From a phage: 64,000 bases of DNA. The position numbers were made by a program, and so were the translations under genes. The notes under the pieces are model-generated. The model saw only the letters and a list, made by a program, of their open reading frames with translations. It was not told the DNA's origin and ran no database searches. This document shows, piece by piece, positions 1,929 to 9,384 of this stretch. Each line of letters opens with the position of its first letter. Within the stretch, counting starts at the first letter, position 1. The DNA lies in NCBI GenBank assembly GCA_012401045.1, contig GCA_012401045.1_4704.1. One strand, given 5' to 3'.

Positions 1929-3023
1929 ATGTTTCGTGTTTTAAATAACCTCCCGCGAACATCATCGGGTGTGCAGCCCGTCCCTCAGAAAGACTATCTA
2001 ATACGCGAAGTTCAAAGAAACCTACAGACAATCCAGAACCACTATCAAGGTTTTACCTTCGCGGTTCAGAGCGATCACATCCTTGCGTTACTGCTCGCAC
2101 AGCTCCCTATGAGATACGACATCTCAGTACAAACTTACTACGATATGATTCTCGATCTTACTCCAGAATTGGGTAATCGTGTTAAGTTGACAACATCAAG
2201 ATACGCGGGTAAGTTATTCGACGGTGCTTTCTATCCGGGATTGCACGAAGCTATTATCGCAACCGGTGAAAGTCGTCTTATTTCACGTGACGTTCTTGAC
2301 AACTGGCGTAATTGGTCGCCGGTTAGAATCGTGACACACCCATACGCAAATCTTCGTTACATTCCTCTTCACCGAAAGCAGGTTGAAGAAGGACGAGGTT
2401 TTGCGGTCATTATGGTTGATGTACCTTTATTAGCACTACAGTATCGAATGTGGTCTTTGGTCATGGGTCATAACGTCGACGGTAAATGGGTGGTTAAAGA
2501 ACCGGTTACAAGCTTCCTTGCGAGTTTTCCGTTGGTCAACGCATTATATTCACACAACGATGTTGTTATACGCAATCGTTGTTTGTGGGTATCTCCGGCT
2601 AAGAATCCACTCAAATCACCAATTTACGTTAACGACCTTGATAACGTATTCAGCCAAGTCGTTCTGTCCGTACAGCATCATTTATTACGAAGAAGACGAA
2701 GCTACACCGATATGCTTAAACAGATACCGAGTTTATACGGGGATCAGTACCAAGCAACCCGAATGGGTTACACCGTCGATCTTCGACAAACCCGATGGGC
2801 AAGGGATCTGGGCTGTCTGTCGTTATGGCAACAACTCGTCACACTACAAAACGTATCTGAAAGCGTCGGGTTCAGCAGCCAGATCGATAACGACCTGTAC
2901 CGTGCTGCCGACCGTAGTCTAAAAGAAGGTAACTGGGAGTCCTCTCCGTTACCTGGCGATTTAAGACGTGAAGTTATCGCACAGGTTGCCGACCTCTTAA
3001 AAATTCTTCCCGCTGGTGCATAA
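1929..3023 (+). CDS. Hypothetical protein (364 aa)
   Basis: ORF with ATG start and weak SD; convergent with the next gene; terminator hairpin follows. Confidence 0.6.
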   Translation: MFRVLNNLPRTSSGVQPVPQKDYLIREVQRNLQTIQNHYQGFTFAVQSDHILALLLAQLPMRYDISVQTYYDMILDLTPELGNRVKLTTSRYAGKLFDGAFYPGLHEAIIATGESRLISRDVLDNWRNWSPVRIVTHPYANLRYIPLHRKQVEEGRGFAVIMVDVPLLALQYRMWSLVMGHNVDGKWVVKEPVTSFLASFPLVNALYSHNDVVIRNRCLWVSPAKNPLKSPIYVNDLDNVFSQVVLSVQHHLLRRRRSYTDMLKQIPSLYGDQYQATRMGYTVDLRQTRWARDLGCLSLWQQLVTLQNVSESVGFSSQIDNDLYRAADRSLKEGNWESSPLPGDLRREVIAQVADLLKILPAGA

Positions 3024-3089: not shown

Positions 3090-5243
3090 TTACTCTGCGG
3101 TTTCTTGCTTCGGTAAATAACTTGCTGCGATGTCTTGGGCTAACAATGTATTGTTTTTATTCGAGATGAAAATACCATAACTTTCCATTAACGCGTAATA
3201 CGAACGCACGAGCGTAGAGATCAATCGACGAATATCCATACCTTGAATAAAGATATCAGGAAGCCCGGAGGCTTCGATCACCGGTAATGGTATCGTTAAG
3301 TTGCTTATCGTTTTCTTATCGTTACGTACAATCCAATCACGGAAACGTTGTTGTAACCCTTTATCCTCCCAGGAATCAATCCAATCGTTAAGAAGCGTTT
3401 TGTTCTTCGTCGCCAACGGCACACGAACCCCAACATAGGGTGGTTCAGGGCAATGGCCGTACGATTGAGCAAACACCTCTTCCCACATATCGTAAGACTG
3501 TTTCGTTACTGCAACATGCGGTTTCACTTTAACACGCGTTAAGAAATCAGGATCACCACGTTTCATAGACTCAACGATTTCGTTTTCTAACGAGATAATA
3601 TCGTCAAGAACCAATCGAATGCTGATCTTCTCGTTACGTAACAGCTTATCCATGATACCACACATCATGCGTTCAACACGTTTGACGATCATTTTTGGTG
3701 CTGACGCATCACGCATAACCGGACCTTTCAATTCCAGCTTCGGTGGATTGATAGGAACCCCCTCACGCATGGTCATGTAACCGTAATAGTTTTTACCCAT
3801 CGAGGTTAACGACAGAATCAAGAACATATATTCGTTCTTCATTTCCATCACGTACATATGCTCTTTCGCCACACCGATATTACCAGAACACATCGCCATC
3901 AGATGAACCGTAATCTGCGTAACCAGATAGATAAGCGTGTTTGCTAAGCGCGTCGAAACTGGATTGATCTCCATATTTCCAAATCGCCACTGAACCCACT
4001 CCTGGCAGGTAAACACCGTCGAGTCGGTATCAGACAACACACCCACTTCACGGATTGCTGATGGGAAAGCATAAACACCAGCCGGTTGGTTCTCGGTACG
4101 CCAGAACGCCATAATCAAATCAGCATAGCTTTGAATACGCTGTAGCATTAATTTTGTCGTTGCTGCAGTAAGACGATAACCAAGCTCATTTCCTTTTTCT
4201 AGCGCTACGTAAATCGCTTCCCCATTCAAGAACTCCGTACATTGTGCTGTAATCCAAGCGACCGTGTTGTTATCCATGGAAGCAATAATGGCTTTAGCCT
4301 CTTCCATCGTTTCAACAGGTTCGGATGCCAGCTCGCATAACGAATCAAGAAAATCTCGAACAAATTCAGGATTAAGCTCACGTAACGAGTACAGGTTATT
4401 GCTGTACATGTAGCAGGCACGTTCCAACGGTGTTAAACCAGTAATTAACTCCCGGATAGTCAGTTCTTTCTCTGGGTCGAAAGTATATCGATGCAAGCAT
4501 TTCGATACGTTAGCCCAAACCTCTTCCGGCGTAGGGTAATGTAGTTTGTATTTTACCATTACCTGTTCAATGGCTTTACGATCGCTGTTGCGGACAATAC
4601 TCACGATGTTTTCAATTGCGATATCACAATCGTAATAATGGAAATTGCCCGCAAGGAAGCGTTCGTTGTTCGCATTGGCTGAACCTGAAGCACAGCGACA
4701 CGTTGTCGTTAAACTTGGATGCGCAATTGGATTATAAAAAGGGTTAAACTTGGACGCCTGGGTTCCTGACAAACTGTTGTTATCTAACTTGGTGTTGGTT
4801 TGTCGTTTATCGTGTAACTCAGCTTCATCTTTACGTCCGTGTGCTTGCGCTATCGACATTTGTTTCTTTTGTTTCTTACGCAACTTACCGTTTTCAACCG
4901 CAAAGTCGCTTAGCACACTGGAACGTGTTTCACGTGGATAACAGTTAGCCCACACCGGCGTGATAATTAAATTATTTTCTTTAATATCATTGAAGTATTG
5001 GCTGAACTTGATGACTTCTTTTTCTCGATTTCCTTCGGTGCGCTGTGTTAATACAAGGCAGTCGGGATCAACCATCCCGTATTTTCCACCAGGACGAACC
5101 GTATCAAGGACAAACTGCAACGCTTCCTGCTGTGATATCCCACGCATGCGCATTAAGAACAGGGTATAATCCTGTACCGCTTCTTTGGTCATATCCAACG
5201 TACGGCCATATCCGTTTTCATCGTAAAAGAACGGATTTTCCAT
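3090..5243 (-). CDS. Large hypothetical protein (717 aa) with a DTDS acidic motif; function unknown
   Basis: Long ORF; SD GGAGGA upstream of ATG 5243; contains GVLSDTDSTVF and KNYYGY but motif order does not fit family B DNA polymerase. Confidence 0.75.
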   Translation of the reverse strand: MENPFFYDENGYGRTLDMTKEAVQDYTLFLMRMRGISQQEALQFVLDTVRPGGKYGMVDPDCLVLTQRTEGNREKEVIKFSQYFNDIKENNLIITPVWANCYPRETRSSVLSDFAVENGKLRKKQKKQMSIAQAHGRKDEAELHDKRQTNTKLDNNSLSGTQASKFNPFYNPIAHPSLTTTCRCASGSANANNERFLAGNFHYYDCDIAIENIVSIVRNSDRKAIEQVMVKYKLHYPTPEEVWANVSKCLHRYTFDPEKELTIRELITGLTPLERACYMYSNNLYSLRELNPEFVRDFLDSLCELASEPVETMEEAKAIIASMDNNTVAWITAQCTEFLNGEAIYVALEKGNELGYRLTAATTKLMLQRIQSYADLIMAFWRTENQPAGVYAFPSAIREVGVLSDTDSTVFTCQEWVQWRFGNMEINPVSTRLANTLIYLVTQITVHLMAMCSGNIGVAKEHMYVMEMKNEYMFLILSLTSMGKNYYGYMTMREGVPINPPKLELKGPVMRDASAPKMIVKRVERMMCGIMDKLLRNEKISIRLVLDDIISLENEIVESMKRGDPDFLTRVKVKPHVAVTKQSYDMWEEVFAQSYGHCPEPPYVGVRVPLATKNKTLLNDWIDSWEDKGLQQRFRDWIVRNDKKTISNLTIPLPVIEASGLPDIFIQGMDIRRLISTLVRSYYALMESYGIFISNKNNTLLAQDIAASYLPKQETAE

Positions 5244-5304: not shown

Positions 5305-5346
5305 ACGGCATAAAAAAGAACCGATCCAGCCGAAGCCAGATCGGTT
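5305..5346 (-). promoter_or_regulatory. Hairpin followed (minus orientation) by TTTTTTATGCCGT; late-type promoter and/or terminator candidate upstream of the 717-aa gene
   Basis: Plus strand ACGGCATAAAAAAG + aaccgatc/gatcggtt stem; member of the recurrent ACGGCATAAA family. Confidence 0.5.
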
Positions 5347-5541: not shown

Positions 5542-5955
5542 TTACTGATTAATCAAGTCGTTAGCAACAATCTTGGTGTAACCTGCCTGATTAAGAATTT
5601 GATTAATTTTCGTCACGTCGGTCGCATCCTCAATAACGATGCTGGGTTTATAGATCAGCGTCTTGGTAACGACGATTGTACTCTCCTTAATCCAAGGAAT
5701 CCCTAGAATCACATACTCACCATCGGCTGTAATGACCTCGACGTAATTGTATTTCGTCGGATCGTTCGGTACACTAGACGGGAGCCGGGAATAAATCTGT
5801 TGGTGAATGGCGTCTACATCACGGCCGTTACGCACAGCCGTACGATAGTTGTACACGGCACTAATTTCTACTCCGTTGAAGTTAACCCCAAGTTCTGGGG
5901 CGTACACATCAAAACTCACAACAGAGCCAATCTTTTCTAAATCAGAAGCTGGCAT
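5542..5955 (-). CDS. Hypothetical protein (137 aa)
   Basis: ORF with SD AAGGA 9 nt upstream of ATG 5955. Confidence 0.6.
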   Translation of the reverse strand: MPASDLEKIGSVVSFDVYAPELGVNFNGVEISAVYNYRTAVRNGRDVDAIHQQIYSRLPSSVPNDPTKYNYVEVITADGEYVILGIPWIKESTIVVTKTLIYKPSIVIEDATDVTKINQILNQAGYTKIVANDLINQ

Positions 5956-5966
5956 AATAGCATCCT

Positions 5967-6365
5967 TTATTTAAAAATGTATTCATATCCGAAAGTCGTC
6001 GCTGACCAGACCCGGATAGATGATAGTGTTCCGCCACGATAAAACGTTTTTGTGAATTCCATATCCTGGACAACACGATAATAAACACGTCCGATAATAC
6101 GCACGATAAGGTTTCGTGATAACGATCTCTCCTCGCAGTATTCATCGATAAAGTCATCGTCGATATCCGATAAGACAACATCCGCAATTTCTTGCAGTAG
6201 ATTCCTCATCAGCATCTGCCTTCCTTCGGTACCCCACCCAGACAAACAGTAATCGTCTTCTGCCTGACTATAGATGTCGTTAACCGCCTGTTCGAGCAGT
6301 TGCTCAAGATAGTAGTCATCGCGTTTTATAACGTGGCGACGGCGCTCAGTGGCGTATTTTTCCAT
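5967..6365 (-). CDS. Hypothetical protein; start uncertain (ATG 6365, 6215 or 6488)
   Basis: ORF 5967..6488 overlaps upstream gene in another frame; internal Met at 6365 gives a 40-nt overlap; Met at 6215 has the best SD (AAGGAAGG). Confidence 0.4.
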   Translation of the reverse strand: MEKYATERRRHVIKRDDYYLEQLLEQAVNDIYSQAEDDYCLSGWGTEGRQMLMRNLLQEIADVVLSDIDDDFIDEYCEERSLSRNLIVRIIGRVYYRVVQDMEFTKTFYRGGTLSSIRVWSATTFGYEYIFK

Positions 6366-6814
6366 CCTGTGTTTCTCTTGTTCGGCGTATGTATTAACGA
6401 CGCCACAGTCTTTTCTGGATCGTCCCACAATGCACGACGAAAACTGGATACTACCATAACGGTAGGATAGATTTGTACAACCTCCCATCCGTAACGATGT
6501 GCGTTAGTCGTACGTCCGACATTGAACAGACATAGCTGATTTAAGAAACAGAGCTGCATCTTCGTAAACAACACCATGTCTTCACGTTTAACGTATCCGA
6601 GGATATATGCATTCTCGAACGCCTCGCGTGACAAGACGGGACGATTAAGATACCGTAACGCTAATACCAACAACGTTGTTATGCGCAACGGATCTTCTGG
6701 GTCATTCATGGTGCTCAGCTCTGCTTGTAACCAGTCAGGGATAGTAACCGTCAGACGATAGGTATCTGTTCCACGATCAACCACATTCAATGTTGAAAAA
6801 GGCAACATATCCAT
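6326..6814 (-). CDS. Hypothetical protein (162 aa)
   Basis: SD GAAGGAA 5 nt upstream of ATG 6814. Confidence 0.55.
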   Translation of the reverse strand: MDMLPFSTLNVVDRGTDTYRLTVTIPDWLQAELSTMNDPEDPLRITTLLVLALRYLNRPVLSREAFENAYILGYVKREDMVLFTKMQLCFLNQLCLFNVGRTTNAHRYGWEVVQIYPTVMVVSSFRRALWDDPEKTVASLIHTPNKRNTGWKNTPLSAVATL

Positions 6815-7271
6815 GAATTCCTTCTAGCTCGAGGTTGTTCTCGCCGGTCTTCGGTAATAACCCACTGGCCGTTAACATCTGTGTCATCGAGTAGTCAAAG
6901 CACGGGAATATCAGGTTAACGGTTTCCTGGATCGCGTCAACATAACTATAAATGGCTTCATAATACTCACCGTCATGATCTACGCTAACCAGTTCCTGAC
7001 ACAGTTCTTCGCTTATCATTTCATATACCGGCGGATACCACGATTGAAATGGTCGCTGCATACGTAACGACCAATACTCGTACGTCGTATACTGAAGCAC
7101 GTCGTAAGCCGATACGTTAATGCGGTCGAAGAAAGCATACTTGTCCATATGCTGATACAACATCGCCAGCACGGTTTCCAAGCACACCGATATCCGCACG
7201 CCGTCATCTTTCCCGTTAAGAAAATTAGGTTTCTGCCGATAACGCACAAATGCCGACGGCTTTGATTGCAT
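6777..7271 (-). CDS. Hypothetical protein (about 164 aa)
   Basis: Start ATG 7271..7269 overlaps upstream stop as TAATG (translational coupling); the longer ORF-track N-terminus is rejected. Confidence 0.55.
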   Translation of the reverse strand: MQSKPSAFVRYRQKPNFLNGKDDGVRISVCLETVLAMLYQHMDKYAFFDRINVSAYDVLQYTTYEYWSLRMQRPFQSWYPPVYEMISEELCQELVSVDHDGEYYEAIYSYVDAIQETVNLIFPCFDYSMTQMLTASGLLPKTGENNLELEGIHGYVAFFNIECG

Positions 7272-7756
7272 TATTCCACCACCAACCATAACGTCATACT
7301 CGTATCTAACGTAAAATTGAAATGCCACCAATCTTCTACACGTGGAATCCACGTACGAAGGATTTGGTTAACTTCGCTTCGCATCACCGATAAACGACAA
7401 CGAAAATCGAACTTCTCATCGTGGCCGTAGTCTTCATGCATGAAAACTTCATCCAAAACGAACTCAAGTTGCATGTCGACATCACGGCCAGAGATATTCC
7501 GTTTGTACAGATACAGTTCAATCGTGTCGTAAAGCAACGTGTGAATATCATAATTTCCGTTCGGTGAGAAATAAGGTAATCGCTCATCGAGCATCGTAAA
7601 CAGATATTCGCTGTAGTTTAATAACGGGATGATGTACCGACGCCCTGTCTGTGGTGTGCGAATATGTATCGAAACCTGACTTGGGCGCGGAATAACCGAC
7701 GGCTTAGAATCGTCTCTCTGAAATTGCTCTAAAGATCGCAACAAAGGTGGCCGCAT
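7271..7756 (-). CDS. Hypothetical protein (about 161 aa)
   Basis: Internal ATG 7756 with SD GGAGAG; upstream part of ORF 7271..7954 is W/R-rich and not protein-like. Confidence 0.5.
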   Translation of the reverse strand: MRPPLLRSLEQFQRDDSKPSVIPRPSQVSIHIRTPQTGRRYIIPLLNYSEYLFTMLDERLPYFSPNGNYDIHTLLYDTIELYLYKRNISGRDVDMQLEFVLDEVFMHEDYGHDEKFDFRCRLSVMRSEVNQILRTWIPRVEDWWHFNFTLDTSMTLWLVVE

Positions 7757-8333
7757 TGTAACTCTCCAACGCCCAATTGTAAGGCCCTTCCAACATGTGT
7801 TCCCATACGTGAATAAACTCACTACCGAAGACAGGCTCCAGCGCCATGGTGAGATTCGTAAGTTCTGACGCAGCCGCATGGTAAGCATCAACATGTCTTT
7901 CCATTGACGGATCGTCTTCATTGAAAATACGTTCTGTGTCGCCAGCCCGCTCAATAAGTTCGGTAATGAGATCTGTCCATGTCTCGTGACACGTCATCAT
8001 TTCCTGTTCTCGACTTAGTATGCCGATGTCTGCGTGGACGCTGGACTCGAACCGGTCTAAAAGGACCCGAAGAACGTGCACCTTGTCGATGTATTTCACC
8101 GTTATCCAGGAAAGCGGTTGCCACCGACTCAGCATCCATCCGGTACTCGGGAACCCCAAACTCATATAGTACGGGTTGCACCGGACCGAAGACGGAGCGA
8201 CGTTGTTTAAATCGCTCCTTAAGGGCAAGGCCTTGTTTAATATAAACGGGTTCATTGGCGAGTTGTTCCGCTTTTCGTTTTGCGTGAGCCAATCGAAGTT
8301 CTTCCAATTGCCCAAGCCATTCAAATTGTTCAT
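7704..8333 (-). CDS. ORF whose C-terminal two-thirds look coding; either a separate overlapping gene or the frameshifted continuation of 7951..8928
   Basis: Frame B protein-like from about 8080 downward (acidic helical sequence) while frame A becomes Arg-rich junk there. Confidence 0.35.
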   Translation of the reverse strand: MNNLNGLGNWKNFDWLTQNEKRNNSPMNPFILNKALPLRSDLNNVAPSSVRCNPYYMSLGFPSTGWMLSRWQPLSWITVKYIDKVHVLRVLLDRFESSVHADIGILSREQEMMTCHETWTDLITELIERAGDTERIFNEDDPSMERHVDAYHAAASELTNLTMALEPVFGSEFIHVWEHMLEGPYNWALESYNAATFVAIFRAISERRF

Positions 8334-8928
8334 CTGTTAGCTCCTGGGGACGTTCAACAATCGCGCCAGACGGGCAGATATTGATCGTAATGTTAATTGA
8401 CGGCATCGCCATCACTCGAGGATTACTATTACGTACGCGGACAACATGTTCGGTTGCTGATTTACGATCGACGCAATACTCTGTTTCTTGGAACTCAAAT
8501 GCTTTTAACGGCGTTGGTTTTGTTTGACGTTTAGGAACGCGGCCAAGATCAACAATATAGGCATAATCGCACACACGTTCTATTCCGTAAATACGGTTAT
8601 CCGACCAGTTCTTACCAAACAGCTTGTTGTGATGATAAGACAAATATTCGGTTACCATACCCTGGACAACATCGAAATCTTCTCGAAATTCAGGTTGGTA
8701 CCAAATCGGGCCGAGAATATCTGCGAACGATTCATGACGATATCGAGGATCATGTCGAGTCCAGGTCATTCTCTGGTTAAGATCGAAATCCACCAACAAC
8801 TCGGTTAATTGCAATTTTTCCTTCGGAGAAAGCTGGCGTTGATGATGCAAACTCAGACAATCGATAAGCGGTAATGAAACCCACGATGCTAATGTGTACA
8901 AATCGATCCTGGCTAATCTCTTGGTCAT
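7951..8928 (-). CDS. Hypothetical protein (325 aa in this frame; last 40 aa doubtful)
   Basis: SD AGGAAAAG upstream of ATG 8928; C-terminal RPRRHRHTKSRTG tract suggests frame exit near 8080. Confidence 0.5.
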   Translation of the reverse strand: MTKRLARIDLYTLASWVSLPLIDCLSLHHQRQLSPKEKLQLTELLVDFDLNQRMTWTRHDPRYRHESFADILGPIWYQPEFREDFDVVQGMVTEYLSYHHNKLFGKNWSDNRIYGIERVCDYAYIVDLGRVPKRQTKPTPLKAFEFQETEYCVDRKSATEHVVRVRNSNPRVMAMPSINITINICPSGAIVERPQELTDEQFEWLGQLEELRLAHAKRKAEQLANEPVYIKQGLALKERFKQRRSVFGPVQPVLYEFGVPEYRMDAESVATAFLDNGEIHRQGARSSGPFRPVRVQRPRRHRHTKSRTGNDDVSRDMDRSHYRTY

Positions 8929-8983
8929 ACTCTTTTCCTAAGTCCCCATTGTTTATACACACGATATCTGGGAATAGTTAAAA

Positions 8984-8999
8984 TATACGGCGTAAAACG
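8984..8999 (-). promoter_or_regulatory. Variant late-type motif (minus orientation TTTTACGCCGTATA) upstream of 7951..8928 gene
   Basis: Plus strand TATACGGCGTAAAACG; one mismatch from ACGGCATAAAA family. Confidence 0.35.
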
Positions 9000-9352: not shown

Positions 9353-9384
9353 ACGGCATAAAAGCCTGCCCCGAAGGACAGGCT
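9353..9384 (-). promoter_or_regulatory. Hairpin + TTTTATGCCGT late-type promoter/terminator candidate
   Basis: Plus strand ACGGCATAAAAG + agcctg/caggct stem; 12 nt upstream of gene start 9340. Confidence 0.5.

Follow-up and report, generated by a model that had tools for sequence, protein, structure and literature searches.

A real, collinear chain of early genes between PhuZ and the DNA polymerase of a Goslar-like jumbo phage, with six candidate nucleus or takeover factors and a baseplate protein

The window (the whole stretch of 64,000 nucleotides that was analysed) shares 98.7% identity with Escherichia phage Goslar and comes from a Goslar-like nucleus-forming jumbo phage (chimallivirus) of E. 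coli. From exactly 8928 down to 5542 it holds seven minus-strand open reading frames (ORFs), which match the Goslar annotation and whose counterparts are Goslar_00198 to 00192 (RefSeq HOV27_gp237 to gp243), termed g198 to g192 here. The nucleus-localised Goslar 'gp193' of the literature is HOV27_gp193, not Goslar_00193 of this block. A preliminary description had set the block between the chimallin candidate and PhuZ; between the block and chimallin, however, there are two further genes, the DNA polymerase (3090-5243) and one on the plus strand (1929-3023). The genes and the elements that flank them, in the order of transcription, are:

9354..9383, minus strand: terminator hairpin (9364-9383) with TTATGCCG (9354-9361); Goslar annotation, -18.8 kcal
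8977..8997, minus strand: TTTTACGCCGTATATTTTAAC, conserved motif resembling a promoter, within the 91-nt spacer ahead of g198
7951..8928, minus strand: g198 (Goslar_00198 / HOV27_gp237), 325 aa, basic, pI 9.2; ORF with Shine-Dalgarno site
7704..8000, minus strand: g197 (HOV27_gp238), 98 aa, acidic, pI 4.5
7271..7756, minus strand: g196 (HOV27_gp239), 161 aa
6777..7271, minus strand: g195 (HOV27_gp240), 164 aa, acidic, pI 4.5
6326..6814, minus strand: g194 (HOV27_gp241), 162 aa from the ATG at 6814
5967..6365, minus strand: g193 (HOV27_gp242), 132 aa, acidic, pI 4.75
5542..5955, minus strand: g192 (HOV27_gp243), 137 aa, SH3-fold protein (PF20287 SH3DP)
5319..5346, minus strand: intrinsic terminator at the operon end, 12-bp stem and T-run; found by scan and annotated in Goslar

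The head gene of the cassette, g198, encodes a protein whose N-terminal domain (residues 1-133) is conserved; LTDEQFEW forms a central motif, and the basic, Arg-rich C-terminal tail is partly kept in one relative. The genes g197 to g193 encode small, mostly acidic, clade-restricted proteins. The g194 start at 6814 has AAGGA 5 nt upstream; an alternative start at 6808 gives the 160 aa of the Goslar annotation, and both starts occur in public annotations. An N-terminal KP..IPR..QV..IR.P motif is common to g196 and its orthologue in the related lineage L097, while the single-sequence AF2 model of g196 (pLDDT 44) is unusable. The most divergent member is g193, whose positional counterpart in phiKZ is orf48 (Imp4). 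All seven genes had been called small and lacking in recognisable domains. The first term does not fit g198, at 325 aa; the second is borne out for g198 to g193, which have no match in Pfam, PHROG, PADLOC or PDB, but not for g192, a full-length member of PF20287 (E 1.3e-36; 125 bits, where the cut-off is 25).

Consecutive genes overlap by 50 nt (g198/g197), 53 nt (g197/g196), 1 nt in the form TAATG (g196/g195), 38 nt (g195/g194; 32 nt with the start at 6808) and 40 nt (g194/g193), and g193 and g192 are separated by an 11-nt gap. The junctions first reported as ATGA/TAATG or tens of nucleotides are thus correct for the latter two types, and none of the block's junctions is ATGA. The overlapping starts would keep the genes on one mRNA, and their geometry is compatible with translational coupling.

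It might be supposed that some of the seven ORFs or the long overlaps are spurious and that the true starts lie downstream. Public annotations do vary in the start of g197 (98, 131 or 209 aa), g196 (107, 161 or 216 aa), g195 (134-170 aa) and g194 (127, 160 or 162 aa), and same-strand overlaps of more than 23 nt are absent among about 45 other Goslar genes inspected. Against this stands the pattern of variation in 14 Goslar-like genomes (96-99% nucleotide identity), which differ at 260 sites in the block and show no indels within it. Of the 256 variable sites that lie outside the overlaps, 202 are third codon positions in the annotated frames (chi-square P = 2e-53), and the bias is found in every frame (g198, 46/69; g197, 18/19; g196, 27/39; g195, 34/38; g194, 25/34; g193, 15/22). 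The long overlaps are judged real because the bias persists upstream of the next possible start codon in g197 (6/6), g196 (7/9, before Met55) and g194 (3/3). The four long overlaps are also depleted of variation, with 4 variable sites against 14.5 expected (Poisson P = 0.0013); orthologue alignments cover the N-termini of g197 and g196, and gene callers in related lineages likewise call overlaps of 19-41 nt. Annotation artefact is therefore largely refuted as an explanation and can be considered very improbable. The start of g193 is the weakest-supported of the starts.

Collinear orthologues of the cassette are present in three related uncultured lineages (L096, L097 and L103), further evidence that the chain described at the outset is real. 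Identity across these lineages is 20-43% for the cassette genes versus 54-64% for PhuZ, PolB and SH3DP (54-63% for SH3DP, g192, alone); the cassette sequences change at roughly twice the pace of the core genes on either side, while position and architecture are kept. Searched exhaustively with HMMER, 1.84 billion representatives yielded only four matches to g198 (86%, 32% and 29% identical, and one fragment). Orthologues of g197 were found in L096 (E 1e-9), L097 (E 2e-10) and, with a clade HMM, L103 (7e-43), and matches to the g196 family come from the Goslar clade and its relatives only (36-44% identity). Orthologues are also present for g195 (E 1e-11 and 4e-9, 26% identity) and g194 (E 4e-8 and 2e-5, 23-25% identity), and g193 has an orthologue in L096 only (E 2.6e-4, 20% identity), to which the clade HMM adds L103 (5e-30). 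Among the 14 Goslar-like genomes, gene content and order are invariant and purifying selection is strong.

Upstream of g199, the terminator element at 9354..9383 closes the PhuZ-g200 unit. A hairpin/TTATGCCG..TTTTAAC cassette stands ahead of the block and a strong terminator, followed by TTATGCCG at 5306-5313, after it. The TTTTACGCCGTATATTTTAAC motif is inferred to be a promoter; in L096 and L097, a hairpin and then the same motif (TTATGCCGGTATGTTTTAAC or similar) precede the g198 orthologue. Published RNA-seq data from Goslar itself, a different genome that is 98.7% identical to the window, show similar read densities across the block genes, g192 included. When chimallin is knocked down, HOV27_gp237-243 stay at control level (log2FC +0.03 to +0.6) and structural genes fall by 4-7 log2 units. 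The seven genes belong to the early, vesicle-stage, nucleus-independent class, and by these data the block is transcribed before the phage nucleus assembles and independently of that assembly.

The last gene, g192, matches chains of PDB 11lx and 36za at 100% identity, and its phiKZ counterpart, gp049, is present in PDB 9xqs. CryoEM and mass spectrometry have identified g192 as a structural protein of the baseplate lower wedge (preprint 10.64898/2026.04.21.720040). The Pfam name of PF20287 implies a polymerase partner, whereas in the solved structures of the virion it is part of the baseplate; its transcription with the early class sets g192 apart from other structural genes. It is a chimallivirus core gene, with tblastn matches in 173 phage records, and lies directly upstream of a divergent PolB, as it does in every chimallivirus locus that extends that far. 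The products of g198 to g193 (YP_009820877-882) are not among the entries listed in the mass-spectrometry table of the Goslar virion, also obtained from Goslar itself. Since the operon closes with a baseplate gene, shared location does not imply shared function.

In every chimallivirus examined, an analogous hypervariable chain occupies the slot between PhuZ and the SH3DP-polymerase pair, in the order PhuZ / Zn-ribbon, a larger gene with five to nine small same-strand genes, SH3DP, divergent family-B PolB and chimallin. Synteny is retained both in close relatives and across the chimalliviruses examined, the outcome that the preliminary description had looked for. In most loci PhuZ or DUF7484 is found another 3-8 kb upstream of SH3DP, and 62 non-Goslar loci carry 6-16 same-strand ORFs each in the slot, which fall into 174 sequence clusters. 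The arrangement is also annotated in Ea35-70, phiKZ, Proteus phage 10, PhiPA3, Eowyn, RP12, Phabio and PS119XW.

Large lytic phages also carry hypervariable clusters of early genes, for example the 'monkey-wrench' arrays of T4, which, like the block, consist of small, overlapping, same-strand early genes that lack database matches and evolve fast between relatives. The block differs in that lineages with 20-43% identity have the same number of genes in the same order, its slot is anchored between core genes throughout a virus family, and at least two members of the phiKZ slot lack transposon insertions.

The closest parallel is the phiKZ gp043-gp048 cassette, which shares the block's orientation and its setting between PhuZ/DUF7484 and SH3DP (gp049) with divergent PolB (gp050), upstream of chimallin. 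Both comprise a larger gene and then several tightly packed or overlapping genes of 100-190 aa, and both are lineage-restricted in sequence. In phiKZ, orf47 (Imp2) and orf48 (Imp4) were found genetically to be cargo-specific nuclear import factors and are described as conserved in Pseudomonas phages only (Kokontis et al., bioRxiv 10.1101/2024.03.27.586873). Transposon sequencing of phiKZ recovered no insertions in gp043, 047, 048 or 049, whereas gp044-046 tolerate them. In the Goslar-like block, g197 to g193 have no detectable sequence homology to any phiKZ cassette protein, and hmmsearch and hhalign gave none between g198-g193 and the Imp2 family (probabilities of 2% or less). No sequence homology to Imp4, itself a singleton in the clustering of slot ORFs, was found for g198-g193. 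In 17 of 18 loci Imp2 is the second or third gene counted from SH3DP, near the 3' end of the cassette, whereas g198 is at the 5' end.

Two leads bear on g198, which is probably a divergent member of the phiKZ gp043 family (F00). The hhalign probability against this family rose from 54% to 70.7% once a fourth lineage was added, hmmsearch over 530 slot ORFs placed two F00 members at the top (E 0.0037 and 0.012), and the Foldseek match with the best TM score, Eowyn_00075, is F00 by HMM at 1e-11. In the AF2 model (mean pLDDT 57), only the first 133 residues are confident (pLDDT about 70-90). This predicted N-terminal helical domain may resemble the Imp2 (phiKZ gp047) fold, at marginal E-values (Foldseek E 9e-4 to 5e-2, probability 0.89-0.98). 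The matches are PS119XW gp045, PHABIO_64, PhiPA3 044 and proteins of 201phi2-1 (276 aa), Noxifer (167 aa) and SL2 (178 aa), of which two are Imp2-family members by HMM (8e-46 and 2e-40) and one by annotation. Helical domains are prone to false Foldseek matches. The leads are not yet reconciled, because the gp043 and Imp2 families have no mutual profile similarity.

Several functions might be served by such a cassette. Inhibition of host immunity or host processes at the vesicle stage, with no role in import, would suit early, nucleus-independent transcription, rapid divergence and clade restriction, absence from the listed virion entries, the tolerance of phiKZ gp044-046 to insertion, and the small size and acidity (pI 4.5-4.75) of several products, as in DNA mimics and many anti-defence proteins. 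Anti-defence islands, however, are usually in presence/absence flux, whereas here all 14 genomes have the same genes in the same order, under strong purifying selection and with no indel, and three more lineages are collinear with them; there is no PADLOC or Pfam match, and the phiKZ counterparts gp043, Imp2 and Imp4 lack insertions. Such a role is possible, though we think it rather unlikely.

Proximity to PolB, kept in all chimalliviruses examined, raises the prospect that the six proteins are imported into the nucleus as processivity, priming or loading factors for that polymerase, as might the early expression, the Arg-rich tail of g198 and the Pfam description of PolB's neighbour as 'SH3 fold domain associated with phage DNA polymerases'. 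That neighbour is a baseplate protein, which makes adjacency a poor guide, and a strong terminator separates block and PolB; replication factors tend to be well conserved, but these genes evolve faster than any others of the region and resemble no clamp, primase or SSB in fold or profile. A replication role is accordingly improbable. Little probability likewise attaches to the six being non-virion chaperones or scaffolds of baseplate-wedge assembly, although they share an operon and similar read density with g192, are missing from the listed mature-virion entries, as chaperones should be, and correspond to a phiKZ region in which gp047, 048 and 049 all lack insertions. The genetics of phiKZ assign gp047 and gp048 to import, not assembly; other baseplate and tail genes belong to the strongly nucleus-dependent late class; and chaperones would be expected to match the rate of their well-conserved client, which is 54-63% identical against 20-43%.

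The best explanation is that the block is a single early operon in which g198-g193 are lineage-specific import adaptors or partners, a joint proposal that we hold about as readily as we doubt it. The preliminary description had proposed all seven genes as nucleus- or takeover-associated candidates, to be abandoned on late, virion-associated expression. As a virion baseplate protein, g192 drops out; for g198-g193 the proposal is supported in part by their early class, their absence from the listed virion entries, the import slot of phiKZ, the Imp2-like model and the retained synteny, and a nucleus or takeover function is plausible. The proteins g198-g193 may be early, located in the cytoplasm or at the periphery of the nucleus, and may serve the conserved PicA/Imp1 import machinery as adaptors or partners specific to the lineage, the part that Imp2 and Imp4 play from the same cassette in phiKZ; they may co-evolve with their cargo. 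Such co-evolution would explain how these genes diverge fast between genera and yet are held within a lineage under purifying selection and in a fixed order.

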